Source: Gemmatimonadales bacterium
GTDB lineage: Bacteria > Gemmatimonadota > Gemmatimonadetes > Gemmatimonadales > GWC2-71-9
Length of the DNA: 31,713 bases
NCBI GenBank assembly: GCA_035472975.1
Contig: DATIOP010000022.1
Coordinates: forward strand, 1 to 31,713
Reading direction: 5' to 3'
Below, in pieces: positions 1 through 21,891 of the stretch (its first letter is position 1; each line of letters begins with the position of its first letter). A program made the translations under genes and the position numbers. Under the pieces are notes generated by a model, which was not told the origin of the DNA, did not search any database, and was given only the letters and a program-made list of their open reading frames with translations.

Positions 1-1384
1 GCAGCTGATTGAGGCCATCCGCTTGCACCAGGGCTACACCCTGGATGCGTCCGGTGTTGACCCGGTTCCCCAGTCTGAATCCCCGGGCATCAACGATCCC
101 CTGATCGATGTGCCACACCAGGAGACCAGGCCCCTTGGCACAGGAACGGGTACCGAACACGCACGCCTCATTGATCTGTGCGCTGTCGCTACCGATCGGC
201 TGCCGGTTTTCCAGCAGGAAGTATTCGTCGGTGTTGGGGACCCCGATATAGAGGACAGTATCGCTCGTCGAGACTGGACTCAGCCGAACCGAGCGCGAGG
301 TTCCCAGAGTATCAATCGCCACCCAGCCAAGCTCGGCGAGAGACCACGCCTCGAAGCGGGACGGGCTGTAGGGCTGGGTGTAGTTGCCGCTCCCCATGAT
401 TCCCCATTCGCCGATTCCCTGGGTTACCGACGGGCTGCGCAGGTCGGTGTCGTAGAGATCCGGAAGCCCGAAAGCATGCCCGGTTTCGTGGGCCACCGTT
501 CCCACCGGCATGATGGCGGATCCATTGCACGCGGTGGTCCCGCCAACCGCGCTCTGCATGGTGTAGTCATCCACCAGGATGAACTGACCGGGAAGGATTG
601 CTCCTCCCGCACCACGCCGCGGGCTTTTCGTTTTGTATGGCGAGCCGTTCCAGGCGCTCATGAAATAGCGGTGAGCCCAGATGCCGGGCGCCCCACACGC
701 GCCGTCCACCTTAGGCTGCAGGAAGGTGACGAAGTCCACCACACCGTCGTCATCCCCCGAATTCGGCAGACCGTCCGTTCCGTCGTTGTCGAACTGCCCC
801 CAATCCAGCGCGCCGGTATCGTTGGCCTTGAGCGCCTCGAGGAGCAGATCCACGAAGGGGCGCCCGCCGTGCGGGCATGAGACCTTCACGCCGACGCCGT
901 TGCAACCGTCTTCGTAGTACACATCGGCGCTGTCTGCCACGACCCAATCCAGCACCACCCCGCTGATGGTGACCGATCCCCGAGACATCTCCTGGTAGTA
1001 ACTGCGGACGCTGTACGGCTCGCTGGTGGGCGACGGGTTGAACAGGACGTTCTCGTACTGGGCGGCGGGGAATGGCGGAGTCGTGTTGCTGAAGGTGATC
1101 GGGACGACCGGAACGAAATAGGTGCCTGCGACACGCGTCATGGCGCTACGACCGTTCAGAACCGACAGAGCGCGCAGGCCGAGCAGCCCAAGCCGGTTGG
1201 ATCGCACTCGCTCCGAGCCCGTGCGCCAGGCCCCTTCGGGACGGAAATCGAACCCGTCTACTTCGAATCTCCCGATCCTGGACCGCGGGTATGCTTCCTG
1301 CCCCCCCAGCGACCCAATCTTGACCTGGTAGAAGCATCCGACCAGGCCAAGGACGGTACAGAAGTATCGAAAGCGGCTAGACAA
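1..1384 (-). CDS. M6-family (immune inhibitor A-like) secreted zinc metalloprotease, 3' end outside window
   Basis: Manual minus-strand translation (absent from the ORF track because it has no stop in the window) gives ...VAHETGHAFGLPDLYD...GIGEWGIMGSG..., i.e. HExxH plus GLPDLYD plus Met-turn, with DNDG/DDDG Ca-binding-like loops and a late VQADG motif. The start is uncertain: TTG at 1384 follows in-frame stops and gives a signal-like N-terminus. Confidence 0.85.
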   Translation of the reverse strand, partial: MSSRFRYFCTVLGLVGCFYQVKIGSLGGQEAYPRSRIGRFEVDGFDFRPEGAWRTGSERVRSNRLGLLGLRALSVLNGRSAMTRVAGTYFVPVVPITFSNTTPPFPAAQYENVLFNPSPTSEPYSVRSYYQEMSRGSVTISGVVLDWVVADSADVYYEDGCNGVGVKVSCPHGGRPFVDLLLEALKANDTGALDWGQFDNDGTDGLPNSGDDDGVVDFVTFLQPKVDGACGAPGIWAHRYFMSAWNGSPYKTKSPRRGAGGAILPGQFILVDDYTMQSAVGGTTACNGSAIMPVGTVAHETGHAFGLPDLYDTDLRSPSVTQGIGEWGIMGSGNYTQPYSPSRFEAWSLAELGWVAIDTLGTSRSVRLSPVSTSDTVLYIGVPNTDEYFLLENRQPIGSDSAQINEACVFGTRSCAKGPGLLVWHIDQGIVDARGFRLGNRVNTGRIQGVALVQADGLNQL

Positions 1385-1536: not shown

Positions 1537-1578
1537 AGTGACGATCCCTCATCCGGCCAGCGATTGAATCGAGGCACC

Positions 1579-2784
1579 GTGGATATTCAGACTCTGCAGA
1601 CTGTCGCTCTGTTTGAAAAGTGCCGTCAGTTCACCAAAGCCCGAGAAATTCAGACCGCCGGGCTCTATCCCTATTTCAAGCCGATTTCCGATTCCGAGGA
1701 TACCTCGGTCGTCATAGAAGGTCAGAAGCGCATCATGCTGGGGTCGAACAACTACCTCGGCCTGACTCACCACCCCAAGGTTCTCGAAGCCGCCTCCCGA
1801 GCCCTTCATCGCTATGGATCGGGCTGCACCGGCAGCCGGTTTCTCAATGGCACCCTCGACCTGCACGGCCAGCTCGAGCGCGCCTTGGCTGAATTCCTCG
1901 GCAAGGAAGACTGCCTCGTTTTCTCCACCGGGTACTCGGCCAACCTCGGCCTCATTTCCGGCCTCATCGGCCGGGGTGAGGTGGTGTACCTGGACAAACT
2001 GGACCACGCCTCGATTGTCGACGGGGCCAAGATGTCCTACGGCGATACCCTGCGCTTCACTCATGGAGATCTTCCTGCGCTGGAGCGGATGATCGAGCGG
2101 ACCAGGAACGGCCGCGGCGCCATGATCATCGTAGACGGCGTGTATTCCATGGAAGGCGACATCGCCAACGTCCCGGAGCTGGTTCGCATCGCGAAGAAGT
2201 ACGGTATCGCGTTGGCCCTGGATGACGCCCATTCGATCGGCGTGCTGGGCCCCAACGGCGACGGCACGGCGGCCCATTTCGGAATGACCGATGACGTTGA
2301 TATCATCGCGGGGACCTTTTCCAAGTCTCTCGCATCGATCGGCGGCTTCGTGGCCGGCGCCGAGAGCGTGATTCACTATCTCAAGCACCACAGCCGCCCG
2401 CTCATCTTCACGGCCTCCCTGCCGCCAGCCAACACGGCCGGAGTGCTGGCGGCGCTCGAAGTGATCAAGACGGAACCGGAGCGGCGGGAGAACCTCTGGG
2501 CCAACACCCGCCGGCTTCAGGATGGCTTCCGGCAGCTGGGATACGACATCGGCGAAACCGAGACTCCGATCGTTCCGGTGCTGATCGGCCCGCTGGAGAA
2601 GACCTTCATCTTCTGGCGCAAGCTGTTCGACGCCGGAGTATTCACCAACCCCGTTGCGCCGCCCGCGGTGCCGCCTTCGCAGTGCCGTCTTCGCACCAGC
2701 CTTATGGCAACCCACTCGTTCGACCAGATCGACTTCTGCCTGGAGCAGTTCGCCTCGATCGGACGCGAGCTGGGGGTCATCTGA
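1579..2784 (+). CDS. spt: Serine palmitoyltransferase-like PLP-dependent alpha-oxoamine synthase
   Basis: Motifs MLGSNNYLGL, GSRFLNGT, DHASI, DDAHS and GTFSKS (PLP Lys, SPT-type spelling); adjacent to bCerS-like and CerR-like genes. GTG at 1579 follows GAGG; the ORF track starts at TTG 1564. Confidence 0.75.
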   Translation: MDIQTLQTVALFEKCRQFTKAREIQTAGLYPYFKPISDSEDTSVVIEGQKRIMLGSNNYLGLTHHPKVLEAASRALHRYGSGCTGSRFLNGTLDLHGQLERALAEFLGKEDCLVFSTGYSANLGLISGLIGRGEVVYLDKLDHASIVDGAKMSYGDTLRFTHGDLPALERMIERTRNGRGAMIIVDGVYSMEGDIANVPELVRIAKKYGIALALDDAHSIGVLGPNGDGTAAHFGMTDDVDIIAGTFSKSLASIGGFVAGAESVIHYLKHHSRPLIFTASLPPANTAGVLAALEVIKTEPERRENLWANTRRLQDGFRQLGYDIGETETPIVPVLIGPLEKTFIFWRKLFDAGVFTNPVAPPAVPPSQCRLRTSLMATHSFDQIDFCLEQFASIGRELGVI

Positions 2785-3923
2785 CCGCAGCAGACGTTCA
2801 GGTCCGGCCCGTTCAGGGCCGGGCCGATCTGGATCGCTTCATCGCACTGCCCTACGAACTCTACGCGCGGGACCCGCACTGGGTCCCGCCGTTGCGTATG
2901 GACGTGCGGAAACTGCTTGACCGCAAGAAGAATCCCTTCTTCGAGCACGCCGAGGCCGAGTATTTCCTGGCGGAGCGCGGTGGGAGGGTGGTGGGCCGGA
3001 TCGCCGCCATCGCTAACCAGCTGCACAACGAGACCCATCAGGACAAAGTCGGTTTCTTCGGCTTCTTCGAGTGCGAATACGATGAGGGAGCCATCCATGC
3101 TCTCTTCGCCGCCGCTACCGAATGGGTCCGGGCCCGAGGTTTCGATACCCTGCGGGGGCCGGCATCGTTTTCTGTGAATGACGAATGCGGCCTCCTGGTG
3201 GACGGCTACGACACTCCGCCCACCCTGATGATGCCGCACAATCCTCCCTGGTACCGGCGGTTAATCGAAGCCGAAGGATTCAAGAAGGCCAAGGACCTGC
3301 TGGTGTACCGCGGCGGATCTGAGGCGTCGTATGTCCCGGTCCCTGAGCGGCTGGCGCGAGGCACCGAGCTGATCCGGCAACGCCAGGGCGTCACCCTCCG
3401 GCCATTCAACATGGCCGATTTCAAGAATGAAGTAGAGAAGATCAAGGTTCTCTACAACCAGGCCTGGGAGAAGAATTGGGGCTTCGTCCCCATGACTGAC
3501 AAAGAGCTGGATCACCTGGCAGACCAATTCAAACCGATTGCGATACCGGAATTGATTCCCTTCGCCGAACACAACGGCGAAATCATCGGCTTCGGCCTGT
3601 GCCTGCCCGATCTCAATGCGATCTTTCGGCGACATCGATCCGGCCGGCTCACGCCGGCTCTCCTGGCGGACCTTCTCCTGACCCTTCGCTTCAACCGGCT
3701 CCGCCGGCTCCGCATCCTCCTCCTGGGCATCAAGCCGGAATGGAGAGGCAAGGGCGTGGATGCGATGCTGTATCACTGGATCTGGACCAAGTCGAAGGAG
3801 CGGGAGATTTATTGGGGTGAGGCGGGGTGGATCCTCGAGGACAACCCGGCCATGAACGCCGGTCTCGAGAAGATGGAATTCACCGTCTATAAGACCTACC
3901 GCATGTACGATCGACCGGTATGA
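2781..3923 (+). CDS. bcerS: GNAT-fold N-acyltransferase, bacterial ceramide synthase (bCerS)-like
   Basis: DPHWVPPL...KNPFFEHAEAEYFLA...VVGRIAA...GFFGFFE, WEKNWGFVPMT and GWILEDN match my recollection of the bCerS/GNAT family; directly downstream of spt. Start proposed at a CTG overlapping the spt TGA; the alternative is GTG 2682. Confidence 0.7.
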   Translation: MTAADVQVRPVQGRADLDRFIALPYELYARDPHWVPPLRMDVRKLLDRKKNPFFEHAEAEYFLAERGGRVVGRIAAIANQLHNETHQDKVGFFGFFECEYDEGAIHALFAAATEWVRARGFDTLRGPASFSVNDECGLLVDGYDTPPTLMMPHNPPWYRRLIEAEGFKKAKDLLVYRGGSEASYVPVPERLARGTELIRQRQGVTLRPFNMADFKNEVEKIKVLYNQAWEKNWGFVPMTDKELDHLADQFKPIAIPELIPFAEHNGEIIGFGLCLPDLNAIFRRHRSGRLTPALLADLLLTLRFNRLRRLRILLLGIKPEWRGKGVDAMLYHWIWTKSKEREIYWGEAGWILEDNPAMNAGLEKMEFTVYKTYRMYDRPV

Positions 3924-4918
3924 AGGCGCTGGTGACCGGGGCGACGGGGTTCGTCGGGAGTCACCTCGTCGAGGCACTCGTTGGGAATGGGGATGAAGTC
4001 ACCGCGCTGGTCCGCTCCCCCGGCAAAGCCAAACTCCTCACACAACTCGGGATCCGGCAGGTCCCAGGCGACCTGTACGACGCAGCCGCCCTGGTCAGCG
4101 CGGTAAGGGACCAGGACGTTATCTACCACGTTGCCGGGGTGACCGCCGCGCGCAACGAGGCGGACTTCCTCCGCGCCAATCGAGATGGGACCCACAATCT
4201 CCTCGCTGCCGTACATTCATCTCTTTCGACGGAGCCCTCCCATCGCGGCGGTGAGCCGCCGAGATTCGTCCTCGTCTCCAGCATGGCGGCGGGCGGCGCT
4301 TCGGAGCGGGGGCGGCCTCTCAAGGGAGACGAACCTCCCCGTCCAGTGACCGCGTATGGCCGGAGCAAGCTCGCCGGCGAGGCTGTCGTTCGCGTTTCAG
4401 CCCTTCCATGGACCATCATTCGTCCGCCGATGGTCTATGGTCCGCGCGATACAGAGGTGTTCAAGGTCTTCAAGCTGGTTCGCAGCGGACTGACCCCGGT
4501 ATTCGGAGATGGGCGACAGGAGCTTTCTGCGGTGACTGGCCCCGACCTTGGGCGGGCCTTGATGCTCGCCGCCACCAGCGCTGCAACGGTGGGTAAGACC
4601 TATTACGCCTGTCACCCTGAGGTCTTTACCAGTGAACAATTCGCCCATGCCGTTGCCGCCGCGATGCATCGCGAAGTGAGGGTGATCAAGCTGCCCAACT
4701 GGCTCGCCGTCGTTGCCCTCGGCGCGACCGGCGCCTGGGCCTGGGCCACCAAAAAGCCCACAATTCTGACACCGGACAAGGCGAACGAGTTCTACCAGCC
4801 GGCCTGGACCGGAGATCCAGCCGCTCTGATGCGCGATACCGCGTGGAGGCCGGCCCAGAATCTGGCAATCGGGCTTGCGGGCACGGCGCAGTGGTACCGG
4901 GACGCAGGATGGCTTTGA
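3920..4918 (+). CDS. NAD(P)-dependent epimerase/dehydratase (extended SDR); candidate ceramide reductase, CerR-like
   Basis: TGATGFVG Rossmann motif, VSS and YGRSK catalytic motif; ATGA overlap with the upstream gene. The family call is strong; the CerR function is inferred from context. Confidence 0.8.
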   Translation: MKALVTGATGFVGSHLVEALVGNGDEVTALVRSPGKAKLLTQLGIRQVPGDLYDAAALVSAVRDQDVIYHVAGVTAARNEADFLRANRDGTHNLLAAVHSSLSTEPSHRGGEPPRFVLVSSMAAGGASERGRPLKGDEPPRPVTAYGRSKLAGEAVVRVSALPWTIIRPPMVYGPRDTEVFKVFKLVRSGLTPVFGDGRQELSAVTGPDLGRALMLAATSAATVGKTYYACHPEVFTSEQFAHAVAAAMHREVRVIKLPNWLAVVALGATGAWAWATKKPTILTPDKANEFYQPAWTGDPAALMRDTAWRPAQNLAIGLAGTAQWYRDAGWL

Positions 4919-5850
4919 TGCAGGTAGAAGCCGGGCATCGCGTCCGTTCGCTCGAGTACCTGGTGGGCGGTTATCTCGTGATCACCAGCGTCCTGGCCTT
5001 GATCCGTCTCGAGAATCAGCCGGCGTGTGCGTGGGTGCTCCTGGCCAATGCGCTCTACCTCCTGCTGATTGGGCTGTTCGCGCGGGCGAAGCTGGGGCCG
5101 ATCGGAACGGGACTCCGCGAGATCTTCCCCCTGGTCCTGCTCACCTCGACCTATGGTGCGCTGGATCTCCTCAACAATTTCGGAGCCATCCCGACCCATG
5201 ATCAGTGGGCCATGCATGCCGACCGGGTGTTGTTCGGCGGTCAGATCTCGCGGGAATGGTGGCAGGCGCACCCCAGCCCGTTTCTCTCGACCCTCTTCCA
5301 CGCGTCCTACTTCGCCTACTACCCGATCGTTGCGGTACCCGTGCTGTACTTCCTGTTCACGGGGCGGATCGAAGCCTGCCGCCGCTCGGTCCTGTGGCTC
5401 ACAGCGACATTCCTCGGCTGCTATGTCCTGTTCCTTGCCGTTCCGGTAGCCGGACCGTACTACGATTTTCCACGACCCGACCCCGTGATCGTGGACAATC
5501 CAATGGCCAGGCTGGTCTATGCAACACTTGCCCGTGGGAGTTCCTATGGCGCGGCGTTCCCCTCGTCTCACGTGGCAGCCGCGCTCGTTGCCACGGTGGC
5601 GGGATTTCTCGGGGCCCGATGGATCGGATGGGTACTGACGGTGCCGTCGATCCTTCTTTGTATCGGAGTGGTCTACTGCCAGATGCACTACGGAGTTGAT
5701 GCCTTGGCCGGGGGAGCGGTTGGGCTGCTGGTGATCGGAACAGGCTGGTGGGCGGAACGTGGCGGGGAGGAAAATGAATCGAGGACCAAGGCGAGGCATC
5801 GCGCCTCACACTCGGTCCTCGACTCTCAAAACCTCAGTCCTCAGTCCTGA
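4918..5850 (+). CDS. PAP2-superfamily integral membrane protein, AUR1/IPC-synthase-like
   Basis: Several hydrophobic segments, with PVAGPYY, AAFPSSH and MHYGVD motifs and no K-x6-RP motif. ATG overlaps the upstream TGA (TGATG at 4916-4920). Confidence 0.75.
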   Translation: MQVEAGHRVRSLEYLVGGYLVITSVLALIRLENQPACAWVLLANALYLLLIGLFARAKLGPIGTGLREIFPLVLLTSTYGALDLLNNFGAIPTHDQWAMHADRVLFGGQISREWWQAHPSPFLSTLFHASYFAYYPIVAVPVLYFLFTGRIEACRRSVLWLTATFLGCYVLFLAVPVAGPYYDFPRPDPVIVDNPMARLVYATLARGSSYGAAFPSSHVAAALVATVAGFLGARWIGWVLTVPSILLCIGVVYCQMHYGVDALAGGAVGLLVIGTGWWAERGGEENESRTKARHRASHSVLDSQNLSPQS

Positions 5851-5856
5851 CTCCTC
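5814..5856. repeat. Degenerate heptamer array (AGTCCTC-like)
   Basis: GGTCCTC GACTCTC A AAACCTC AGTCCTC AGTCCTG ACTCCTC at the junction of convergent genes, overlapping the PAP2 stop. Confidence 0.45.
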
Positions 5857-5863
5857 GTCACAC

Positions 5864-6346
5864 CTACTGAACGGTGATCGTGCCCCGCATGTTGAAGGCC
5901 AGGTGAGGAGTACAATGGACGTGGTACACTCCCGCCGGAGCGCCCGCGAAGGAGATCTCGTAGGTCTGGTCGGGCTGGACCAGCATCGGACCCGTCAGCG
6001 GAGCGATCACGTCCTTCATCGCCTTATCGAGAACCGGCTGCCCGCCCGCCGGGATGCTATCCTTATCGAAGGCGACGTTGTGCGGGCCGCCGGAGTGGTT
6101 ATGAAAGCGCACGACGTCGCCGGACTTGATGGTGACACTCGCGGGATCGAACTTGCCGACCTTGCCGTCGAAATCCATGTTCACGTCAACCGTGTTGCCG
6201 GCGGCGGCCATCGCCTGCTGGCCCGACGGGGTCTGAGCCATGGCGGCACCCGTGTCCGCCGCGGCGGTCTGCTCCGGGGCCTTCTTTTCACCACCGCACG
6301 CGGCAACAGCGAGCAGCAGCCCCGCCGCGAGAGAAGTCACACGCAT
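5864..6346 (-). CDS. Plastocyanin/azurin-family blue copper lipoprotein
   Basis: Lipobox LAVAAC; type-1 copper ligands PHNV...CTPHLAFNM; GGAGG 9 nt upstream of ATG 6346. Confidence 0.9.
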   Translation of the reverse strand: MRVTSLAAGLLLAVAACGGEKKAPEQTAAADTGAAMAQTPSGQQAMAAAGNTVDVNMDFDGKVGKFDPASVTIKSGDVVRFHNHSGGPHNVAFDKDSIPAGGQPVLDKAMKDVIAPLTGPMLVQPDQTYEISFAGAPAGVYHVHCTPHLAFNMRGTITVQ

Positions 6347-6382
6347 TGCGACCATCCTCCATCAGAGTGTTTGAGAGCGGGC

Positions 6383-6400
6383 TTGTGAATTCGGGCACAA
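6383..6400. promoter_or_regulatory. Rex/CRP-like palindromic box upstream of the plastocyanin gene
   Basis: TTGTGAA-TTCG-GGCACAA: TTGTG-N8-CACAA is perfect; 2 mismatches to Rex TTGTGAA-N4-TTCACAA, 1 mismatch to CRP TGTGA-N6-TCACA. Confidence 0.5.
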
Positions 6401-6432
6401 AGATAGCGAGCCGGTCTGAAAATGGGAGGGCT

Positions 6433-7200
6433 GTGCCCTCGTGTTCCGGCCTGGGAAAACAGTGTCGTGAGCTCCCTGTGCTCCTCAAGATAGGAAGCCT
6501 CGAAGAAGGCCCCGACTCGCTGGATCATGAATCAACCTGGCTGCTGGGGCATACAGCGCAGGTTACCTTCGGCGAACTTCGCATAAAGGGGCAGGATTTG
6601 CTCGTTCCGGCGGTGCTCCACGTCACATGCCGGTATTTGAAGGAGGCGCCGACCGGCAAAGCGCGCTGTCAGATCCACGGCTTTGAAGGCCCGGCGCCTC
6701 CGGTCACGGTCGGAGCCCCTCAGCCCCGTCAGTTGGGCCCCGACCGGTTTCAGGTGATCCAGCGTCACCGGCCGGTCAGGAAGGTCCTCCCAAACGTGCG
6801 ACGAAGCCTCCCCGTGTTGCAGGGAGAGAACCCCTGCGCCACTGCCCCGTGTTCCACTGCCGACAACCGTCGTGGAGCTGCCTGTTGCCGGGACCTCCAG
6901 GTCGAGATCCTGTGCGAGCGCGACAACGTGGAGTTGGAGGCCCTCGTTCGTTCCCGTCGCTCCCCCTATCTTTGTAAGGTCACCAGGGAGGGGGATCATT
7001 CCCTGGAGGCCGAAATCATCTCGGCCTGCGGGTATCTCGAGGCCGGCACCCGGAATTGCTCGCTCCACGGCCGCACCAGGGAGGATGGCCGTCCGGCCAA
7101 ACCCGACCTGTGCAGCGACTGGCCCCCCAAGGGAAAGGGGCTGCATCCGGGATGTGTTTTCGGGCCCTCCTCGGGCCGGAAAAGAAAGAAAAAGTTGTAG
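6433..7200 (+). CDS. Cysteine-rich protein with two YkgJ-like (zinc/iron-chelating) modules
   Basis: 14 Cys; CRYL...RCQIH and CC...CGYL...NCSLH...KPDLC..WP patterns; GC3-rich codons. GTG start at 6433 is uncertain. Confidence 0.6.
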   Translation: MPSCSGLGKQCRELPVLLKIGSLEEGPDSLDHESTWLLGHTAQVTFGELRIKGQDLLVPAVLHVTCRYLKEAPTGKARCQIHGFEGPAPPVTVGAPQPRQLGPDRFQVIQRHRPVRKVLPNVRRSLPVLQGENPCATAPCSTADNRRGAACCRDLQVEILCERDNVELEALVRSRRSPYLCKVTREGDHSLEAEIISACGYLEAGTRNCSLHGRTREDGRPAKPDLCSDWPPKGKGLHPGCVFGPSSGRKRKKKL

Positions 7201-7279: not shown

Positions 7280-7792
7280 ATGGCGGATGAACTGGAGGAA
7301 CTCTACCGCACTACCTACCCCACCGTCGTACGTTTTCTGTACCGACGGGTCTGGGATGCGGATAGAGCACAGGATCTGGCCCAGGAGGTCTTTATGCGGC
7401 TCATGGCCCACCGGCCGGAGAAGCCGCGGGCCTGGTTGTTTGCGGTGGCAGCGAACCTGGCGCGGGATGAAGCTCGCGCCGCGGTGAGGCGCAAGCGGCA
7501 CCTGACGCTGCTGAAGGACGACCCGGTAACCCTCCCGTCGATTCAGCCCTCCGCGGAAGAGACGGTCGAGCAGGACGAACGGCGTTCGAAGGTGGAAGCG
7601 GCGTTGGGAGCTCTCACCAAGCGGGACCGGGAGGTGCTGCTGCTATGGGACGCAGGTATGAGTTATCCCGAAATCGCCCAGCAAACTGGACTTGCTCTGG
7701 GAGCTGTGGGCACGACATTGGCCCGGGCCCGGAAGCGGTTGGTCGACGCATATGATCGAATGGAGCAGCAGAGCCGTGCGGCACATTCCTGA
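7280..7792 (+). CDS. ECF (group 4) RNA polymerase sigma factor
   Basis: AQDLAQEVFMRL, RAWLFAVAANLARD (region 2) and GMSYPEIAQQTGLALGAVGTTLARAR (region 4); GGAG upstream of ATG. Confidence 0.92.
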   Translation: MADELEELYRTTYPTVVRFLYRRVWDADRAQDLAQEVFMRLMAHRPEKPRAWLFAVAANLARDEARAAVRRKRHLTLLKDDPVTLPSIQPSAEETVEQDERRSKVEAALGALTKRDREVLLLWDAGMSYPEIAQQTGLALGAVGTTLARARKRLVDAYDRMEQQSRAAHS

Positions 7793-8798
7793 CGAAGAAT
7801 TGCATGCCTATCTCGACCAGGCGCTGAGCCGTTCTCAGTGCGTGGAGATCGAGAGCCACCTCGCCGAATGTCCCGGCTGTAGCGCGCTGCGGGATGACAC
7901 GGCGGCGCTCAGGGACCGCACCACCGCCCTGCTCGCCCGTCTGGGTCCCGGACCGATTGTGCCGCCAAGCTTCGCCACATTGAGCGACCGCTACGAAGCG
8001 GAACGCCGGTGGCGTCGCCAGTGGACGGTGCGGGCCGGTTGGGCCGCCAGCCTGATCGTGGCGGCCGGCCTCGGCTGGAGCGTAAATCAGCGGGTCCACT
8101 CCCAAGTGGTCCGACTCGACACCGAAGCGCCGATCGTCGTCGCGCCGGTCGCGATTCGCCCGCTCCCATCCGATGCCCGTCCCGCCACCCTTCCTGCCAT
8201 TCAGACCACCAAGCCTCAGTCGACCCGCCCCAGGCAAGCCGTGGCACTTCGCGAGCCGACTTCGGCCCGTCTGCCGGTGGCAGCGTTCCAGGTGGCGGAC
8301 GAATCGGCCGAGGTAATGGTGGCGTCCTACGCGCCGGCTCCGGAGGGAACCGACCAGGCGTCTCGGGAAGTGTTCTCGGTAGAGAGCCAGCCCGCGGTGA
8401 GCGGCGGCAACCTGCAGGGCTTCTGGCGTAGCGTCGGCGTAGACGGGCTGGAGCCGTCGACTCCCGGCCAGCTCGCTCGCGTCCCCGGGTTGCCGGTGAT
8501 CCAGGTGCAGGTACAGCCCGGCGAGGCAGGTGCCGAAGTCACCGCGGTTGATCAGCAGTTGGAAGACGGTCAGCTCATCCGGACTATCGAGGGTCCGGCC
8601 GCCAAAGTCTCCTCGCTGATTGCCAACCAGGAGGCGGAGGACGCGTCAAGCCGCCAACCGGACACTGCGAACGGAAACCAGCCGGACAAAATGACCCTGA
8701 CGTTGCGCCAGGGAGACCGGATGCTCGCCGTGACCGGGCCCTCGAAGGTGCTCGGGAACCTGATGATTTCGCGTGGGGGCGTGCGGAGGCGATACTAG
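7776..8798 (+). CDS. Membrane-anchored zinc-binding anti-sigma factor (zf-HC2/ZAS) with extracytoplasmic domain
   Basis: HIPDEELHAYLD...HLAECPGC (HxxxCxxC), one TM segment, Pro/Ala linker; GTG start overlaps the end of the sigma gene. Confidence 0.85.
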   Translation: MRHIPDEELHAYLDQALSRSQCVEIESHLAECPGCSALRDDTAALRDRTTALLARLGPGPIVPPSFATLSDRYEAERRWRRQWTVRAGWAASLIVAAGLGWSVNQRVHSQVVRLDTEAPIVVAPVAIRPLPSDARPATLPAIQTTKPQSTRPRQAVALREPTSARLPVAAFQVADESAEVMVASYAPAPEGTDQASREVFSVESQPAVSGGNLQGFWRSVGVDGLEPSTPGQLARVPGLPVIQVQVQPGEAGAEVTAVDQQLEDGQLIRTIEGPAAKVSSLIANQEAEDASSRQPDTANGNQPDKMTLTLRQGDRMLAVTGPSKVLGNLMISRGGVRRRY

Positions 8799-8926: not shown

Positions 8927-10288
8927 TTACCGCTGCTTATGCCTCCGATCAATCACGTCCGCGGCCACATAATCCCCCGGCGCCTCTTCATGCTCGAACT
9001 CGCCGGTGATTTCCTGATGTGAATGTCCGCGTTCCCGATCCAGCGTGATTTCGGCGAGCCGGGGGGAGACCATCGGGAAGGTGCGAGCGAAGATCCCGTA
9101 GCAGAGCAGGAAGAGTCCCAGAAATAGGGCGGTCGAGGCGAGCTCCGGCATGCCGAACACCGGACCCGGCTCTCGAGTCACCGAGGGCATCACGTCGAGA
9201 TAGCGCTCCAGCCAGAGCGACACCAGACTGATCGAGGTGAAGAGCGCGAAGGTAAACGGCACCTTCTTGGGCAGCACGCCGAGCAGGCCGAAGAAGGGAA
9301 TGACGAACATGCCGAGGAACACGGTGCTGCCGATCGGGCGCCAGGGACCCCATAGCCGGGCAAACAGGAATCCAGTTTCCTCGGGAAGGTTGCCGTACCA
9401 GATCACCAGGAACTGAGCCCACATGAGGTAGGCCCAGAATACGGTGAAGCCGAAGCAGAGCTTGCCCAGGTCGTGCCGCTGCTTGGGAGAGACGAAAGCG
9501 GCGATTCCCACCTCGTTGCGCCCGTAGAGCATCAGTAGCGCGAGAAGGGTATGGGCTCCCAGGAACGCGCCCATGAAGAACCAGCCGCCGAACAGGTTGG
9601 AGAACCAGTGGGGCTGCAGACCCATGACCATGTCGAATGCCACCAAGGTAAAGACGATGGCATAGACCACCACATACGCCGGAGCGAGGGTATAGATGGT
9701 GTGATCATTCCGCGTCCTGGCCTCGGGCGAGTCGTCATAGCCCGCGGTCCAGCGATCGTACATGGTGCGGCGCCGGCCGGTGAGCAGGGCCTTGGTCTCG
9801 AACATGTCGGGTATCATGTCCGCGCGGATCAGCCGATAGCCCAGATAGTAGAGCAGGCAGAGGCCGATGAAGAGCCGCCAGAACATGAAGCTGTGCGATA
9901 GCCAGAGCTCTTTCGCGTGCCCCAGCCCTTGCATCGCCGGGAAGATGTGACTGTAGCCGACGGTAAAGATCAGCAGGAATCCAATGAGCGATATGGGGAA
10001 GAACAGGAAGGCGGCGGCCTCGGAGAACCGGATCATCAGGCCGGACCACTTCGCTTTGGTCACCTTCTGCACCGCCACGAAGGCCATGCTGCCCCCGGTG
10101 AGGCTGGTGAAGAAGACCCAGTTCACGTGAAAGAGGTGCCAGGCTCGATCGGCCTGAGCGCCGGTAAGGGAAATGCCGAGCAGGATCAGACCGACCACGC
10201 TCAACACCGCTCCGACGCCGACGAAAAGACTGTAGCGTGCCGAGAGCGCCCGGATTGCGAGAGTTTCCCGTACGACTGTGCTGGCCAT
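8927..10288 (-). CDS. actF: Alternative complex III membrane subunit F
   Basis: Polytopic NrfD-paralogue with WFSNLFG, HDLGKLCFGF and YLMWAQFLVIWYGNLPEE; TAATG overlap with actE. Confidence 0.88.
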   Translation of the reverse strand: MASTVVRETLAIRALSARYSLFVGVGAVLSVVGLILLGISLTGAQADRAWHLFHVNWVFFTSLTGGSMAFVAVQKVTKAKWSGLMIRFSEAAAFLFFPISLIGFLLIFTVGYSHIFPAMQGLGHAKELWLSHSFMFWRLFIGLCLLYYLGYRLIRADMIPDMFETKALLTGRRRTMYDRWTAGYDDSPEARTRNDHTIYTLAPAYVVVYAIVFTLVAFDMVMGLQPHWFSNLFGGWFFMGAFLGAHTLLALLMLYGRNEVGIAAFVSPKQRHDLGKLCFGFTVFWAYLMWAQFLVIWYGNLPEETGFLFARLWGPWRPIGSTVFLGMFVIPFFGLLGVLPKKVPFTFALFTSISLVSLWLERYLDVMPSVTREPGPVFGMPELASTALFLGLFLLCYGIFARTFPMVSPRLAEITLDRERGHSHQEITGEFEHEEAPGDYVAADVIDRRHKQR

Positions 10289-10887
10289 TATTGGGCTCCT
10301 CCCGGGGCGGGAGCCGGCCCGGATCCCTGGAGCTGGCGGACGAAGTTCACGATCTGCCACCGATTTTCGCCGCGGACCTTGTCGCCGTAGAGCGGCATGA
10401 CCCCTCGGCCGTAGCGGATGAGGCTGTAGATGTAGCCGTCGGTGTATCCCTTGGCCCGATCGGTGAGAAGCGACGGCGCACCAATCTTGACCCCCACGAG
10501 TCCGTCGCCCGCCCCGACCGGTCCGTGACAGACGCTGCAATAGGTGTGGTAGAGGGTATCGCCAACGGCAGTAGCCGGCTGCCCCGCGAGCGGATTCACC
10601 ACCTTGTCCGCCACGGCCTGATCGAAACCGTAGGCCAGCTGCAGCGGGTCTCCAACCTGCCAGCTCTCCTCCCCACCACTGACCGGCACGGTCCCCGGGA
10701 CGGTATTCCGCGGGATGTCGCCGCGCTGATAGGGAGAGATCGAGCGCTGGAAGATCATCGCGTCGAACCAGGGCACCAGGTGCAGGGCATCATCCGGCGA
10801 GGGCACGTCGTTGTAGTAGAAGTCGCACGATGCCCCGAGGCCCACCAGCAAGATTATTGCGGACGCGCGCAGTGTCTTACGCCGCAT
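10288..10887 (-). CDS. actE: Alternative complex III monoheme cytochrome c lipoprotein, subunit E
   Basis: Lipobox LGASC, a single CSVCH, distal GRGVMP Met, PGTVP motif; GGAGG RBS. Confidence 0.88.
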   Translation of the reverse strand: MRRKTLRASAIILLVGLGASCDFYYNDVPSPDDALHLVPWFDAMIFQRSISPYQRGDIPRNTVPGTVPVSGGEESWQVGDPLQLAYGFDQAVADKVVNPLAGQPATAVGDTLYHTYCSVCHGPVGAGDGLVGVKIGAPSLLTDRAKGYTDGYIYSLIRYGRGVMPLYGDKVRGENRWQIVNFVRQLQGSGPAPAPGGAQ

Positions 10888-11386
10888 TGCGCACCTCCAC
10901 CGCACCCGCGTCCCGCACGATCCGCTCGATGTCCGACCCTGTCCCGCCGACGGCCGGCACGAAGATGCCAATCCGGTCGTCCGAGAAGGAAGGATCATAG
11001 GCCAGGCCGGTGGTCCGCTTGGTGAGACTGAGCAGTACCAGTCCGGTGACCGTGCTGAGTGCGCCGATCAGCACCATCAGCTCGAACATGAATACCACGT
11101 AGGGCGGGACGGTCGCGATGGGCTTGCCGCCCACCAGGAGAGGCCAGTCGAGCGACATCCAGAAGGTCATGCCCACTCCAGCTAGACACCCGGTCATCCC
11201 GCCGATCAGGGTGAAAAGGCGGACCGGACTGTTGGTCACGCCGAGGGCTTCCTCCAGCTCGTGATTCGGCGCCGCGGAATAGACCGTGAAGTTTCCCTTG
11301 CCCTGAGCCCGTAGTGACTTGATGGCGTCACAAGCCGCGTCGATGTGCTCGAAGATTGCGAGGACGCCGGGAACGGGTTTGGCCAT
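10877..11386 (-). CDS. actD: Alternative complex III subunit D (DUF3341-like)
   Basis: Two TM segments, DWPLLVGGKP and FELMVL motifs; TGATG overlap with actC. Confidence 0.88.
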   Translation of the reverse strand: MAKPVPGVLAIFEHIDAACDAIKSLRAQGKGNFTVYSAAPNHELEEALGVTNSPVRLFTLIGGMTGCLAGVGMTFWMSLDWPLLVGGKPIATVPPYVVFMFELMVLIGALSTVTGLVLLSLTKRTTGLAYDPSFSDDRIGIFVPAVGGTGSDIERIVRDAGAVEVRNAA

Positions 11387-12735
11387 CAGTGGCCTACCTT
11401 TCTCAACCGCGGCATCGGAATCATCTCCTTCAACTCCTGAATCGCCACGACCGGGAAGGTCCGGGCAAAGAGCAGGAACCACATGCTGAACCAGCCGAAG
11501 GAGCCGAGCAGGATGCCCCAGTCGGCCCAGGTCGGGGTCATCTGGCCCCAGGCATACGGGTCATAATCGTTGCTGAGACTCGAGACGATGATGACGTACC
11601 GCTCGAACCACATCCCGATGTTGACGAAGATCGAGATCACGAAGAGCGCCGTCAGGTTGGTGCGGATCTTCCGGAACCAGAAGAGCTGGGACACGAACGC
11701 GTTGCAGATGATCATGGTCCAGCCGGCCCACCACATGGGACCAAAAGCACGGCACCAGAACGTCTCCTGCTCGAACGGGTTGCCGCTGTACCACGCGATG
11801 AAGTACTCCATCGCGTAGGCGTAGAACAGGATCGACCCGGTCAGCAGGGTCAGCTTCGCCAGATTGTCGAAGTGGTAATCGGTGATCATGTGCTCGATCT
11901 TGAGCGCCTTGCGGAGCGGGATCAGGATCGTCAGCACCATGCCAACGCCGGAGTAGATGGCGCCGGCGACGAAATAGGGAGCGAAGATGGTCCCGTGCCA
12001 TCCCGGGATGATGCTCATCGCGAAATCCCAGGACACCACCGAGTGCACCGACAGCACCAGCGGAGTCGCGAGCGCCGCGAGGTAGAGGTAGGCACGGGTG
12101 TAATGGCGCCACTGATTGTCGGTGCCTTTCCATCCCAGCGAGAAAAACGAATACACCTTGTGCCGCCATCCCCGCATCTTGTCGCGCGCCGCGGCTATGT
12201 CCGGTACCAGCCCCACGCACAGGAACGTGGTGGAGACCGTGAGGTAGGTGGAGATCGCGAAGACGTCCCAGATCAGGGGCGACTTGAAGTTGGGCCAGAG
12301 GAACCGGGCATTGGGATACGGAAGCAGCCAGTAGAAGAACCACTGGCGGCCGATGTGGATGATCGGGAAGAGGCCCGCCGTCATCACGGCGAACACCGTC
12401 ATCGCCTCGGTGGCCCGGTAGACCGCGGTGCGCCACGGGGAGCGGAACAGGAACAGGATCGCCGAGATCAGTGTTCCCGCATGGCCGATACCGATCCAGA
12501 ACACGAAGGTCGTGATGTAGACCGCCCACATGACGGGCGGTGAGTAGCCCGCCAGCCCCAACCCATCCTTCAGTAGCATCGTGAAGGTGCCGATGCCCAC
12601 CAGGAAGCAGAGCACCGCCACACCGAGCGCAATGAAATAACCCCGGTCCGCGGTCCCCAGCGTGTTGACGACGTCGCGGGTGACCTCGGCGTGGGTCTGA
12701 TTCGGATGCTGCGGGTCGTGCGCTATAACGGCCAT
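11386..12735 (-). CDS. actC: Alternative complex III quinol-oxidising NrfD-family subunit C
   Basis: FVFWIGIGHAGTLISAIL, RATEAMTVFA, SPLIWDVFAISTY, LSVHSVVSWDF and GMWFERY. Confidence 0.93.
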   Translation of the reverse strand: MAVIAHDPQHPNQTHAEVTRDVVNTLGTADRGYFIALGVAVLCFLVGIGTFTMLLKDGLGLAGYSPPVMWAVYITTFVFWIGIGHAGTLISAILFLFRSPWRTAVYRATEAMTVFAVMTAGLFPIIHIGRQWFFYWLLPYPNARFLWPNFKSPLIWDVFAISTYLTVSTTFLCVGLVPDIAAARDKMRGWRHKVYSFFSLGWKGTDNQWRHYTRAYLYLAALATPLVLSVHSVVSWDFAMSIIPGWHGTIFAPYFVAGAIYSGVGMVLTILIPLRKALKIEHMITDYHFDNLAKLTLLTGSILFYAYAMEYFIAWYSGNPFEQETFWCRAFGPMWWAGWTMIICNAFVSQLFWFRKIRTNLTALFVISIFVNIGMWFERYVIIVSSLSNDYDPYAWGQMTPTWADWGILLGSFGWFSMWFLLFARTFPVVAIQELKEMIPMPRLRKVGH

Positions 12736-12738
12736 TGC

Positions 12739-15700
12739 TCAGGCCTCCGTCCGGTGGAGAACCTTGGCCAGATACGTAATCGCCGGCCGCACGTTGATCT
12801 CTTCGAAGACATGGTAGCCGCGGTGGTTGGTCTTGAGCGCCATCACCTTGCTGCCGGGATCCTTCATGTTGCCGAAGACGATGGCGTCCGAGGGACAGGC
12901 CTGAGCGCAGGCGGTGTTGACGTCGCCCTCTCTGAGTTCCCTGCCCTCCAGGCGCGCTGCATTCTGGGCGCCCCGGATCCGATGGACGCACATCGTGCAC
13001 TTCTCCATCACGCCGCGGGCCCGGACCGTCACGTCGGGATTGAGCTGCAGGTTGAGTGGTTCGGGGAACGCTTTCTTCGCGTAGGCGAACCAGTTGAAGT
13101 ACCGAACCTTGTAAGGACAGTTGTTGGAGCAGTATCGGGTGCCCACGCAGCGGTTGTAGATCTGCCCGTTCAGACCGTCGGGCGTGTGGTACGCGGCGTA
13201 AACCGGGCAGACCGGCTCGCAGGGCGCCGCGTCGCAGTGCTGGCATAGCATTGGAATGACCCGCGTCTCCAGCGGATCGCCGGTATCACCCCCGCCCTCC
13301 CAGAACCGCTCGATGCGGATCCAGGTCATTTCGCGACCCCGCCGGACTTCATCCTCGCCCACATAGGGGATGTTGTTCTCGGCGTAGCACGCGGTGACGC
13401 AGGCAGAGCATCCGGTGCACTTGGCGAGGTCGATCGCCATGCCCCACATGGGCTGGTCGCCGACGTAGGCGCCGTGCTTCCGCTTCTCCAGCTGGCTTTC
13501 CCGGAAGCCGTGGATCGCTTCGACCTCGCGCTCGGTATTGATCTCGTGCTCCTCGTGGCCCTGTTCCTCGAGCGCAAGCGCGGGAGTGAGGCCCTTCTTG
13601 GCCTGGTCCAACGTCATCGCGTCTGCGATCCCGCGACCAAGCTGGCGGGTCGTGCCTTCGGTCTTCGCCAGCTTCTTGTACTGCCCGGTCTTGCTCAGGG
13701 TGACGCGAGTCGCGAGGTAGGGCAGGAATCCCTCCCCATCCTTGGCATCGAGCAGGTCCAGCGCGTTGACCCCACGGTCCTTGGCGAAATCGCCGAAAGC
13801 GGTATGTCCCAGCCCGAGCGGGACCGCGACGACGTCAGGGTGGATTCCGGGATAGATGTAGACCGGAGCCTCGATGTTTCCGTGGGGAGAAGAGAGCCGG
13901 AGGATTTCCCCTTCCCGCACGTCGAGGCGCTTGGCCAGCTCGGGATGAACCTCAACCCACGAGTGCCAGGTGATCTTGGTGACTGGATCGGACAGCTCGA
14001 GCAGCCACGGACGGTTGGCGAAGCGGCCATCGCCCAGAACCGAGGCGTAGGGCGCGAACCAGTAACTGTCTCCCCCCTCGCTGCCATCGAAAGACGCCGG
14101 GGTCGAACCGATCTGACCAGCGTTGGCTGCGAGGCGCACCGGTGTCACCGGCGCTTCGGTGTACACCCCGCCGCGCTGCAGCGCGGCGCGCCAGAAGCTC
14201 TCGGTATCGGTCGCGCCCTGCGCGCGCGCCACGGTCTGCCACTGGGTCTTGAGGTAGGCCTCCCAGGACGGAGCATTGAAGCGGCTGAAGGCGCCACCGG
14301 CCTTCTGCGCCGTCTTGAGCAGCACATCGCCGGTCGCCATGCCGTTGAAGACCGGCTGCATCACCGGCTGCATCAGGCCGATTACCCCGCGGCGAGGCCG
14401 GAGATCGTCCCAGCGCTCCAGGGCGTGCAAGCCGGGCAACAGCAGGTCGCACAACGCGGCGGTCTCATCCAGGTAGAGCGAGGTCGAGACCTTGAAGGGA
14501 ACCTTCTTGAATTTCGCAGCGAAGCCGCCCTTGGCCGGCAGCGAGTAGATCGGGTTGGCCTCGTGGACGAGCACCAGCGAGACCCGCCCGCCGTCCGTGT
14601 CGGAGCCGAGGGCTTCGAGGGCGCCGTAGCCTTCACCACCGTCGAGGTCGGAGCCGAAGTTGACCGTGGTCCCGACGTTCCCGGCGATGTAATTGAGCAG
14701 GTTGACCGCCGCGCAAAGATCAACGGCGGCGCGATGCTGGTTCCCGATCCCGCCCGCTACGGCAAGGCTGGGCTTGGCGGAAGCAAACTCGCGCGCTACC
14801 CGGCGAATCACCTCGGCGCCGACACCGCTGGCTTCCTGCGCCTTCTCCGGGGTGAACGCCCCGAGCGCGCCGCGAAGCGCGTTGGAATCGGCCGGATTGC
14901 CGCTCCGCTCGCTCAGCAGCACGTTCGCCATCGCGAGCACGATCGCGGTGTCTGCGCCGGGCTTGGTGGGGTGCCACTCGTCGGCGTTCATCCCGGTGAG
15001 CGACATGCGCGGCGCGAAGGCGACATGCTTCGCCATGTTCCCATTGTCGTAGCCATGGGACTTGGCGAATCCGCGCTGGTTCTCCAGCGGGGAGAGCCAG
15101 TTTTCCAGGAAGTCGGCGCCGAAGGAGACGATGTACTTCGCGGCCGAGAAATCATGGGCCGGCAGCTCGTTGGTGCCGAAGGTGCGGAGATTGGCCGCCC
15201 GCATCGCCTCGTGCGCGAAGGGCTCGTAGCGAACGACCCGGCCCCCTGCGGCGGCAGTCCACTCAGCCAGGAAATCGGAGAAGGTGCCGCGGCCGGCGCC
15301 CGAGATCACCGCGACCTTGCCGGCGGCGCCGCTCAGTTTTCCGGCGAGGGCCGCGATCGCTTCATCCCACGTCACATCCTTGAAGCTGCCGTCCGGCTGA
15401 CGGGTCTTGGGTCCGGTTAGCCGTCCCGGATTGTAGAGACCCTGAAGTGCCGATTCTCCCTGGGAACACATCTTCCCCGCGTTCACCGGATGCTGGGGAT
15501 TCCCTTCCAGCTTGATCGCCCGGCCTTCGCGAGTCTTTACGTGCAGCCCGCAGCCCGCCGAACATTCGGTGCAGGTGCTGGCGTAGTAGGTGGGAATGCC
15601 CGGCACCTGGTCCTCGGATTGAACCAGGTAAGGAACCAGCTTCTCTATCCGCTCAGTCGAACAGCCGGAAACCACCATCGCCCCAGCGCCCGTCGCCCCG

Positions 15701-15756
15701 AGGACAGTGAGGAAGCGGCGGCGATCCATGCCTTCGTTCGGAGTTTCGTCTGACAT
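12739..15756 (-). CDS. actB: Alternative complex III subunit B (molybdopterin-oxidoreductase-like domain fused to a 4-cluster Fe-S domain)
   Basis: TAT RRRFL plus lipobox VSGC; N-terminal CX2CX3CX27C; C-terminal CTGCSACVTAC, CQHCDAAPCEPVCP, CVGTRYCSNNCP and KCTMC...CAQACP. Confidence 0.93.
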   Translation of the reverse strand: MSDETPNEGMDRRRFLTVLGATGAGAMVVSGCSTERIEKLVPYLVQSEDQVPGIPTYYASTCTECSAGCGLHVKTREGRAIKLEGNPQHPVNAGKMCSQGESALQGLYNPGRLTGPKTRQPDGSFKDVTWDEAIAALAGKLSGAAGKVAVISGAGRGTFSDFLAEWTAAAGGRVVRYEPFAHEAMRAANLRTFGTNELPAHDFSAAKYIVSFGADFLENWLSPLENQRGFAKSHGYDNGNMAKHVAFAPRMSLTGMNADEWHPTKPGADTAIVLAMANVLLSERSGNPADSNALRGALGAFTPEKAQEASGVGAEVIRRVAREFASAKPSLAVAGGIGNQHRAAVDLCAAVNLLNYIAGNVGTTVNFGSDLDGGEGYGALEALGSDTDGGRVSLVLVHEANPIYSLPAKGGFAAKFKKVPFKVSTSLYLDETAALCDLLLPGLHALERWDDLRPRRGVIGLMQPVMQPVFNGMATGDVLLKTAQKAGGAFSRFNAPSWEAYLKTQWQTVARAQGATDTESFWRAALQRGGVYTEAPVTPVRLAANAGQIGSTPASFDGSEGGDSYWFAPYASVLGDGRFANRPWLLELSDPVTKITWHSWVEVHPELAKRLDVREGEILRLSSPHGNIEAPVYIYPGIHPDVVAVPLGLGHTAFGDFAKDRGVNALDLLDAKDGEGFLPYLATRVTLSKTGQYKKLAKTEGTTRQLGRGIADAMTLDQAKKGLTPALALEEQGHEEHEINTEREVEAIHGFRESQLEKRKHGAYVGDQPMWGMAIDLAKCTGCSACVTACYAENNIPYVGEDEVRRGREMTWIRIERFWEGGGDTGDPLETRVIPMLCQHCDAAPCEPVCPVYAAYHTPDGLNGQIYNRCVGTRYCSNNCPYKVRYFNWFAYAKKAFPEPLNLQLNPDVTVRARGVMEKCTMCVHRIRGAQNAARLEGRELREGDVNTACAQACPSDAIVFGNMKDPGSKVMALKTNHRGYHVFEEINVRPAITYLAKVLHRTEA

Positions 15757-15770
15757 TCGTGCTCCGAGTA

Positions 15771-15815
15771 AGCCGTCAGCCGTTAGCCATCAGCCCTGAC
15801 GGCTGACGGCTCGCG
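15771..15815. repeat. Inverted heptamer arms (GCTGACG family) in the actA-actB spacer
   Basis: AGCCGTC AGCCGTT AGCCATC AGCC followed by CTGACGG CTGACGG CT; up to about 16 bp of pairing. Confidence 0.8.
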
Positions 15816-15816
15816 G

Positions 15817-16422
15817 CTAGTAGTGACACGCCGTGCAATCCCGATTGACCTTCCGCTCGGTATGACAGGTGATGCAGAAGCCCATATTCGTCACGTTGTT
15901 GACCTTGAAGACCTGGGGCATGCGGGCGACGTCGCCATGGCAGGTGTTGCAGGCGTTGGGTCCCAGAGCCTGGATGTGGCGGCTGTGAGGAAAGTGCACG
16001 TGCCTCGCCAGCGCATGAATGCGGGACCATTCCAGATGCGGTTTGGCGGGATCGCTCTTGTCGGCCCAGAACTGGCGCAACTTCTTGATTTCCGTCTTGC
16101 CCCCGCTGTCGCTCCCCGAGATGACCATGTGGCAGCCCATGCAGGTCTGGAGACTCGGGATGCCTGGCTCATTCGATACGGCCACGCTGTAGTGGCAGTA
16201 CTGGCACTGGATCTTGTACTGGCCGGCGTGGATGTCGTGACGAAAGAAGATGGGCTGGCGGGGACCGTAGAGGTCTGAGGTGTCTCCGGCGGCGATTGCC
16301 GTTGCGGTCACCGAGTCGGGGGCAGGTTTCCCCTGCTGAGCACCCCCGGATCGTTGCAACAGGCCCGCCCCGCCCAGGGCGAGGAAAACCGACCCAGCTG
16401 CGAGAATGGCCAGCTTGCGCAT
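15817..16422 (-). CDS. actA: Alternative complex III pentaheme cytochrome c subunit A
   Basis: Five CxxCH motifs (CQYCH, CMGCH, CNTCH, CITCH, CTACH), QPIFFRHDIH, HVHFPH and an N-terminal hydrophobic segment. Confidence 0.93.
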   Translation of the reverse strand: MRKLAILAAGSVFLALGGAGLLQRSGGAQQGKPAPDSVTATAIAAGDTSDLYGPRQPIFFRHDIHAGQYKIQCQYCHYSVAVSNEPGIPSLQTCMGCHMVISGSDSGGKTEIKKLRQFWADKSDPAKPHLEWSRIHALARHVHFPHSRHIQALGPNACNTCHGDVARMPQVFKVNNVTNMGFCITCHTERKVNRDCTACHY

Positions 16423-19390: not shown

Positions 19391-19398
19391 TTAAATCC

Positions 19399-19863: not shown

Positions 19864-19872
19864 TGTCTTCTC

Positions 19873-21869: not shown

Positions 21870-21891
21870 GGCCTCGGAGCATGGAGACCTG

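Follow-up and report, generated by a model that had tools for sequence, protein, structure and literature searches.

A candidate ceramide head-group transferase of the Aur1 kind, encoded by the last gene of a ceramide operon in Gemmatimonadota

The operon and its last gene

The DNA analysed here (the window) is a stretch of 31,713 nucleotides, contig C22 of a Gemmatimonadales metagenome-assembled genome (MAG). This source genome (G000) comprises 3.5 Mb over 579 contigs and has a completeness of 80.75%. Near the 5′ end of the window a row of ceramide-type genes ends with an open reading frame for a 310 amino acid (aa) membrane protein of the PAP2_3 family, termed P0001. It resembles Aur1, the catalytic subunit of fungal inositol phosphoceramide (IPC) synthase, and is a candidate for the enzyme that adds a phospho-head group to ceramide. 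The operon and the gene that follows it are as follows:

1564–2784, plus strand: serine palmitoyltransferase (Spt)-like gene, first in the operon; start uncertain
2682–3923, plus strand: bCerS-like GNAT acyltransferase gene, candidate bacterial ceramide synthase
3920–4918, plus strand: gene for a CerR-like NAD(P)-dependent reductase of the SDR/epimerase family
4906–4920, plus strand: AGGA ribosome-binding site (4906–4909) and TGATG stop/start overlap (4916–4920), coupling cerR to the PAP2_3 gene (read from the sequence)
4918–5850, plus strand: gene for the Aur1-like PAP2_3 membrane protein P0001, 310 aa, candidate ceramide phospho-head-group transferase
5864–6355, minus strand: convergent cupredoxin gene, next after the operon

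The Spt-like protein matches the Pfam family Aminotran_1_2 (E-value = 1e-51) and has NF047600 as its top NCBIfam match, with 534 bits, a score that does not reach the cut-off of 640. Spt sequences at the same position in relatives show 72%–86% identity. The bCerS-like and CerR-like proteins match Acetyltransf_1 (28.5 bits) and Epimerase (E-value = 3e-29), respectively. The listed start of bCerS at 2682 falls inside spt, and the actual start may be further downstream.

The stop codon of bCerS is overlapped by the ATG of cerR, and the cerR stop in turn overlaps the start of the PAP2_3 gene. For the latter gene the ATG at 4918, which has the AGGA sequence 8 bases to its 5′ side, is preferred over a GTG at 4843, and homologues begin at the same position. 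The PAP2_3 gene is translationally coupled to cerR and closes a four-gene Spt-bCerS-CerR-PAP2_3 operon. An earlier note on this DNA, made without database searches, had taken the gene to be the terminal one of a ceramide operon; this is borne out by the TGATG overlap with cerR and by the convergent cupredoxin gene on the minus strand.

Sequence motifs and family relationships

Three motifs of P0001 are central to its assignment:

5443–5463, plus strand: PVAGPYY, aa positions 176–182, in the predicted periplasmic loop ahead of the sixth transmembrane helix (TM6); opposite PAAPPWY of Aur1 in a profile alignment
5551–5571, plus strand: C2 motif AAFPSSH, aa positions 212–218, with His218 as the predicted catalytic histidine; opposite AFPSLH of Aur1 (H255)
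5683–5700, plus strand: C3 motif MHYGVD, aa positions 256–261, with His257 as the predicted nucleophile and Asp261 as its activator; opposite HHYFVD of Aur1 (H294, D298)

Translation of 4918–5850 confirms the presence of these motifs and the absence of K-x6-RP, the phosphatase C1 motif, as the earlier note had listed them. The motifs are invariant across 27 homologues of 50%–85% identity. Residues F214, P215, S216, H218, H257 and D261 are invariant both in these close homologues and in 24 representatives at 26%–35% identity, and because this holds in both alignments the motifs are not a product of chance. In Aur1, H255 is essential, and the changes H294A and D298A abolish activity (PMC13133130).

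The residue seven positions before R186 is G179 and not a lysine. The C3 histidine is not preceded by S-R (the sequence reads VVYCQMHYGVD), and the full phosphatase signature (K-x6-RP, PSGH, SR-x5-H-x3-D) is not present. The pair R186-P187 is invariant in the 27 close homologues, but it is not conserved among the 24 distant representatives; a degenerate C1 motif was therefore rejected as a feature of the family.

These residues bear on the possibility that P0001 is a hydrolytic lipid phosphate phosphatase of sphingolipid metabolism, acting e.g. on ceramide-1-phosphate, a sphingoid-base phosphate or another intermediate. Such a role appears improbable. The RP pair of the close homologues lies where that of C1 could sit, whereas the C1 lysine is absent and the pair is not maintained in the wider family. 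By sequence, the C2–C3 region alone scores higher against phosphatases, with 31.3 bits (B. subtilis PgpB) and 27 bits. P0001 matches the Pfam family PAP2_3 (PF14378) with 60.3 bits (cut-off 27) and PAP2 with 31.5 bits; the PAP2_3 model also matches sphingolipid-free control genomes, e.g. E. coli, and thus PAP2_3 membership alone does not indicate transferase activity.

There is no match at E ≤ 0.01 to PAP2_C (PF14360), the family of the sphingomyelin synthase type. The top NCBIfam match of P0001 is NF052609, the model for BT_1522 of Bacteroides thetaiotaomicron, with 15.1 bits (E-value = 0.012, aa positions 68–272) and 10.7 bits in the genome scan. The cut-off of this model is 480, so that P0001 is by this model a remote relative and not an orthologue of BT_1522. 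No other candidate of the Aur1 or BT_1522 type was found in the source genome or in four relatives.

The alignment of a broad family profile to AUR1 is full-length (profile positions 20–279 with Aur1 positions 48–313, E-value = 0.035), and pairs PVAGPxY with PAAPPWY, AFPSSH with AFPSLH and HYxVD with HHYFVD. AUR1 and the phosphatases were reached only with this broader profile; PDB sequence searches with the single sequence or a narrow profile gave nothing relevant, and a search of the ESM Atlas gave generic PAP2_3 clusters only.

Predicted fold and topology

An alignment-based AlphaFold model of P0001 (pLDDT 83.6, pTM 0.81) has eight long helices. The top two Foldseek matches are solved IPC synthases, 9vj4_A and the Aur1-Kei1 complex 9ivc_A. 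VIA-align gives Z = 16.4 with 9vj4_A (258 residues aligned, model positions 8–284) and Z = 15.9 with Aur1 of 9ivc_A (268 residues), and the IPC synthase alignments together span model positions 4–297. The match to the sphingomyelin synthase relative SMSr (PDB 8ijq) is lower, Z = 11.5 over 202 residues. The phosphatases LpxE, B. subtilis PgpB, G6PC1 and E. coli PgpB give Z = 10–12.4 over only 160–168 residues, from position 95 on.

Since the alignment to IPC synthases covers ~260 residues and that to phosphatases covers the core only, the match to Aur1 extends beyond the PAP2 core to the three helices at the N-terminus and to the long loops. Judged by this model, the PAP2_3 protein is Aur1-like rather than phosphatase-like in its overall architecture. 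The description of P0001 as an Aur1-like protein in the earlier note is upheld by these fold matches and by a His-His-Asp triad without C1, and the structural comparison it had proposed, with Aur1 and sphingomyelin synthase, places the protein closest to the IPC synthases.

P0001 and Aur1 (PDB 9vj3/9vj4, 9ivc) have in common the eight-helix architecture, the His-His-Asp triad in PSxH and HYxxD motifs, the absence of C1, a P-x-A-x-P-x-Y loop motif and an active site predicted to be on the non-cytoplasmic face. They differ in several respects: identity is only 13%–14%, P0001 is shorter (310 aa as against 401 aa), and its gene is in an operon with a ceramide pathway that is not the eukaryotic one. 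Among the four operon genes none encodes a small four-helix membrane protein and no Kei1-like gene is seen, although no search was aimed at Kei1.

SMSr displays the PAP2-type core with C2 and C3 and without C1. Its ceramide phosphotransferase chemistry would be common to both proteins if P0001 acts as proposed below; however, the fold match is lower, the PAP2_C match is lacking, and the further residues put forward as catalytic in SMSr are found outside C2 and C3.

With regard to a phosphatase role, both the six-helix catalytic core and a His-His-Asp triad are common to P0001, PgpB, LpxE and G6PC1, as seen in the fold and in local HMM matches. In contrast to the six-helix phosphatases, P0001 has three more transmembrane helices at its N-terminus, and its periplasmic loops are long and resemble those of Aur1. 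The gene context is one of ceramide synthesis, and Pfam and NCBIfam scans of the window proteins show no ceramide-kinase-type gene in the operon, which counts against a phosphatase role.

With the helices taken from the model, 8 of the 43 residues of the predicted cytoplasmic loops are lysine or arginine, compared with 5 of 86 for the motif-bearing loops. This distribution fits a predicted topology with both termini in the cytoplasm and a periplasmic active site, comparable to the luminal site of Aur1.

Linkage to ceramide genes across Gemmatimonadota

Homologues (E ≤ 1e-10) were sought in 150 other Gemmatimonadota genomes, i.e. 151 with the source genome. A PAP2_3 homologue is present in 80 of the 150 (81/151 with the source) and bCerS in 95 (96/151), and bCerS adjoins spt and cerR wherever the contigs allow. 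bCerS is present in every one of the 81 carriers of the homologue, which is absent from all 55 bCerS-negative genomes. For 70 of the 80 other carriers the homologue is found 0.96–1.2 kb downstream of bCerS on the same strand, a spacing that equals the length of cerR; as related genomes are not independent, these counts of co-occurrence and synteny overstate the statistical support. The earlier note had allowed that the gene might be rarely linked to spt and bCerS in relatives, and this is not the case.

The remaining ten homologues show other arrangements. In G027 a divergent homologue follows bCerS immediately, and in G077 the homologue is 1.2 kb away on the opposite strand. Two others are separated from the operon by contig ends (G148, G149) and six are elsewhere in the genome. 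In G033 the homologue is away from the operon, beside a saccharopine-dehydrogenase-like gene and MgtE. Two unpublished genomes are included in the sample and no conclusion rests on either: G057 is counted among the 70 syntenic genomes and in the counts of inositol genes given below, and G097 is bCerS-positive, without the PAP2_3 enzyme and without myo-inositol-1-phosphate synthase (MIPS).

Among genomes without the homologue, the absence in G096 is due to a contig end only, and G043 has a three-gene operon.

Two genomes of one genus, G110 (L128, 3962–5455) and G144 (L129, 3993–5490), have two conserved open reading frames of ~208 and ~262 aa after cerR in place of the PAP2_3 gene. They have no Pfam match, and could encode an alternative head-group function.

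The operon-linked homologue of G127 (G127:C1:3128412-3129060), a single-contig genome, appears as two overlapping matches with an internal TGA. It is a possible pseudogene or a frameshift.

A further search of named GTDB loci gave 508 confirmed matches. Among the best 80 of these, an independent set that is all from MAGs, the order spt-bCerS-cerR-PAP2_3 is found wherever there is enough upstream DNA, with the sole exception of L047, a gammaproteobacterial locus. The fixed gene order and the translational coupling are kept across genomes whose proteins have identities down to ~30%.

At L047 (Gammaproteobacteria MAG JAOUNS010000001.1, 3489–7856) there are in a row a bCerS-like GNAT protein, a FemAB-like/Acetyltransf_6 protein, a PAP2_3 member and a rhomboid protein, with neither spt nor cerR within 6 kb. 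This may represent a different N-acyl-lipid pathway that has the same family of head-group enzyme. The locus puts a member of the family near a bCerS-like gene in a second phylum.

Two MAGs labelled Candidatus Rokubacteria (L077, L099) contain the complete four-gene operon, with an Spt 73% identical to that of the window. These could be mis-binned Gemmatimonadota contigs or could have arisen by horizontal transfer.

Among bacterial PAP2 proteins there are many that act in lipid A modification or in the recycling of undecaprenyl pyrophosphate (C55-PP), and members of the present family give weak NCBIfam matches to undecaprenyl-diphosphatases. P0001 might thus act on lipid A, C55-PP or another envelope lipid and be in the operon only for co-regulated remodelling of the outer membrane. 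This is very unlikely in view of the perfect co-occurrence with bCerS, the gene order and coupling held over large sequence distances, and the gammaproteobacterial MAG, in which a bCerS-like gene is independently followed, two genes downstream, by a member of the family.

The well-conserved PAP2_3 gene very probably encodes the head-group transferase of a Gemmatimonadota sphingolipid pathway.

Inositol genes and the phospho-head-group donor

Family scans show no inositol genes in the window. A different contig of the source genome, C397 (L044), has three genes in a row with overlapping ends:

C397, 35–1264: NamZ-like exo-muramidase gene
C397, 1261–2064: phosphatidylinositol phosphate (PIP)-synthase-like CDP-alcohol phosphatidyltransferase gene (NF045883, 162.8 bits, just below the cut-off of 170)
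C397, 2064–3398: MIPS gene, directly after the PIP-synthase-like gene (PF07994, 320 bits; PF01658, 117 bits)

Four relatives were checked, and all have the adjacent PIP-synthase-like/MIPS pair as well. MIPS occurs in 142 of the 151 Gemmatimonadota genomes, in 80 of the 81 that have the PAP2_3 enzyme and in 62 of the 70 that do not, a distribution that points to inositol lipids as a trait of the phylum at large. From these genes, phosphatidylinositol (PI) is very probably available in the host as a donor. G043, the only genome of family f1 without MIPS, is also without the PAP2_3 enzyme.

The earlier note had proposed, from the lack of inositol-synthesis genes in the window, that the product could be a new bacterial phosphosphingolipid. 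The lack of such genes in the window stands, but the genome search for MIPS and PIP synthase that it had also put forward yields the pair on C397, and a new phosphosphingolipid is possible but not the leading reading.

A role of the PAP2_3 protein as the PIP phosphatase of the inositol-lipid pathway was considered and rejected: the 62 genomes cited above have MIPS without the protein, which tracks bCerS. The exclusion of this general role also counts against a phosphatase function.

A bacterial precedent for a PI-dependent enzyme is BT_1522, the PI-dihydroceramide synthase of B. thetaiotaomicron. It is an AUR1 homologue whose deletion removes PI-dihydroceramide only, and it is encoded together with MIPS, PIP synthase and a PgpA-like phosphatase (PMC9246714). 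What the earlier note had stated of this Bacteroides system, i.e. an Aur1-like protein that is needed for the inositol lipid and encoded with inositol genes, is accurate. The present host likewise has MIPS and a PIP-synthase-like gene. Unlike BT_1522, which sits in an inositol-lipid cluster, the PAP2_3 gene is in the ceramide operon and the inositol genes are on another contig.

Proposed function

The favoured explanation is that P0001 is an Aur1-type transferase that makes IPC from PI and ceramide as the last step of the operon's pathway; a rough probability of 0.45 is given to this reading as a whole. IPC is the leading candidate for the product because the genome has the PIP-synthase-like and MIPS genes and PI would thus be available.

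In the proposed pathway, Spt and bCerS would build an oxidised ceramide in the cytoplasm, and CerR would then reduce it. P0001, a predicted inner-membrane enzyme of eight helices whose His218/His257/Asp261 site would face the periplasm, would act last as a lipid phosphotransferase. It would take the phospho-head group from a glycerophospholipid by way of a phospho-histidine intermediate on His257, pass it to the 1-hydroxyl of ceramide and release diacylglycerol. The likeliest donor would be PI, formed by the MIPS and PIP-synthase gene products encoded elsewhere in the genome, and the product would be IPC. The motifs, fold match, charge pattern of the loops, coupling within the operon, conserved synteny and co-occurrence, and the presence of genes for inositol lipids are observed, whereas activity as a transferase and not a hydrolase, ceramide as the acceptor and PI as the donor are inferred.

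In Caulobacter, CerR is found in the periplasm, and Spt and bCerS in the cytoplasm (PMC11087976). Given the periplasmic position of CerR there, and given that the active site of P0001 is predicted to be periplasmic, the completed ceramide would be on the side of the membrane that this site faces. By analogy with Caulobacter, the order of genes in the operon would mirror the order of reactions.

Several results weigh against this reading. The sequence similarity to Aur1 and to BT_1522 is marginal (E-values given above), the C2–C3 region alone is closer in score to phosphatases, and the PAP2_3 family extends to sphingolipid-free organisms. None of the best 80 of the 508 loci is from a cultured organism. 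The link to inositol is weak, in that MIPS is near-universal and also found in most of the enzyme-free genomes, and because of this its co-occurrence with the enzyme is a matter of consistency and not proof. The MIPS/PIP-synthase pair never adjoins the operon; it is 20–85 kb away in relatives, a spacing that looks like conserved gene order and not a functional cluster. G027, with its divergent homologue beside bCerS, has no MIPS. Phosphatidylethanolamine (PE) and phosphatidylglycerol (PG), which the host is expected to contain, could serve as donors instead.

The last points lead to a different donor for the same chemistry and acceptor. PE, PG or phosphatidylcholine (PC) would give ceramide phosphoethanolamine, ceramide phosphoglycerol or a sphingomyelin-like lipid, respectively. 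The evidence from fold, motifs and operon fits this equally. P0001 does not qualify as an equivalog of BT_1522, the sole bacterial IPC synthase that has been proven, its gene is not encoded with inositol genes, and G027 shows that a homologue can be beside bCerS where MIPS is absent. In Bacteroidota, PE- and PG-dihydroceramides arise by way of enzymes not identified in PMC9246714, and the deletion of BT_1522 leaves PE-dihydroceramide unaltered. On the other hand, the closest solved folds are PI-specific Aur1 enzymes and not the PE-using SMSr (Z = 16 as against 11.5), no similarity to PAP2_C was detected at the threshold used, and genes of PI synthesis are present in all but one of the 81 carriers. 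A donor other than PI is therefore a lesser possibility than PI, though a substantial one. The Aur1 structure paper states in its main text that the pocket fits the inositol ring; it names no residues that bind the PI head group and that could be used for comparison.

P0001 is a new and divergent representative of the Aur1/IPC-synthase kind, and its genomic arrangement is new as well. A more far-reaching view, a lesser but substantial possibility, is that it is the founding member of a bacterial subfamily of ceramide phosphotransferases that are encoded in operons, face the periplasm and have a donor other than PI. If so, Gemmatimonadota and relatives in other phyla would make a phosphosphingolipid head group, e.g. 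that of ceramide phosphoglycerol, ceramide phosphoethanolamine or a sphingomyelin-like lipid, without a known bacterial synthase.

Of all parts of bacterial sphingolipid synthesis, the head-group enzymes are known least. In the literature searched, the only head-group routes found were that of BT_1522 in Bacteroides and the ceramide phosphoglycerate route of Caulobacter; a paper on the latter, which is a different route, does not mention PAP2. This literature yielded no report of a bacterial ceramide operon that contains a PAP2 gene. The same is true of sphingolipids in Gemmatimonadota, but most subscription journals are outside the coverage of the search, so that novelty is not established by this. 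The fourth cistron of the operon, fixed across a large, uncultured and soil-abundant family, is a clear candidate for a head-group enzyme. The locus predicts that many Gemmatimonadota make phosphosphingolipids, probably IPC. It would also provide a compact bacterial enzyme of the Aur1 type, with no Kei1-like gene in its operon, that may be useful for work on mechanism and structure in a family of antifungal targets.

Other genes of the window

The operon is flanked upstream by a divergent gene:

2–1384, minus strand: M6-peptidase gene

The open reading frames at 5759–7200 are without a family match. They precede a gene at 7692–8798 (plus strand) for a 368-aa anti-sigma factor with a zf-HC2 zinc finger at its N-terminus.

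The part at 17897–31711 has no lipid genes among those it contains. These are of a housekeeping type and encode an ATPase of the type II secretion/type IV pilus kind (T2SS/T4P), a 3-hydroxyisobutyrate-dehydrogenase-like protein, a DinB-type polymerase, a Sel1-repeat protein, a Ser/Thr kinase, a DJ-1/PfpI protein, glutamine synthetase, an ammonium transporter and dihydroxy-acid dehydratase.

A gene set similar to that of alternative complex III is present on the minus strand at 8927–16422, and the cupredoxin gene that follows the operon is nearby. The set includes an ActB-like molybdopterin/4Fe-4S protein of 1005 aa (12739–15756), a multihaem cytochrome c (15817–16422) and a protein with a cbb3-type cytochrome c domain (10288–10998).

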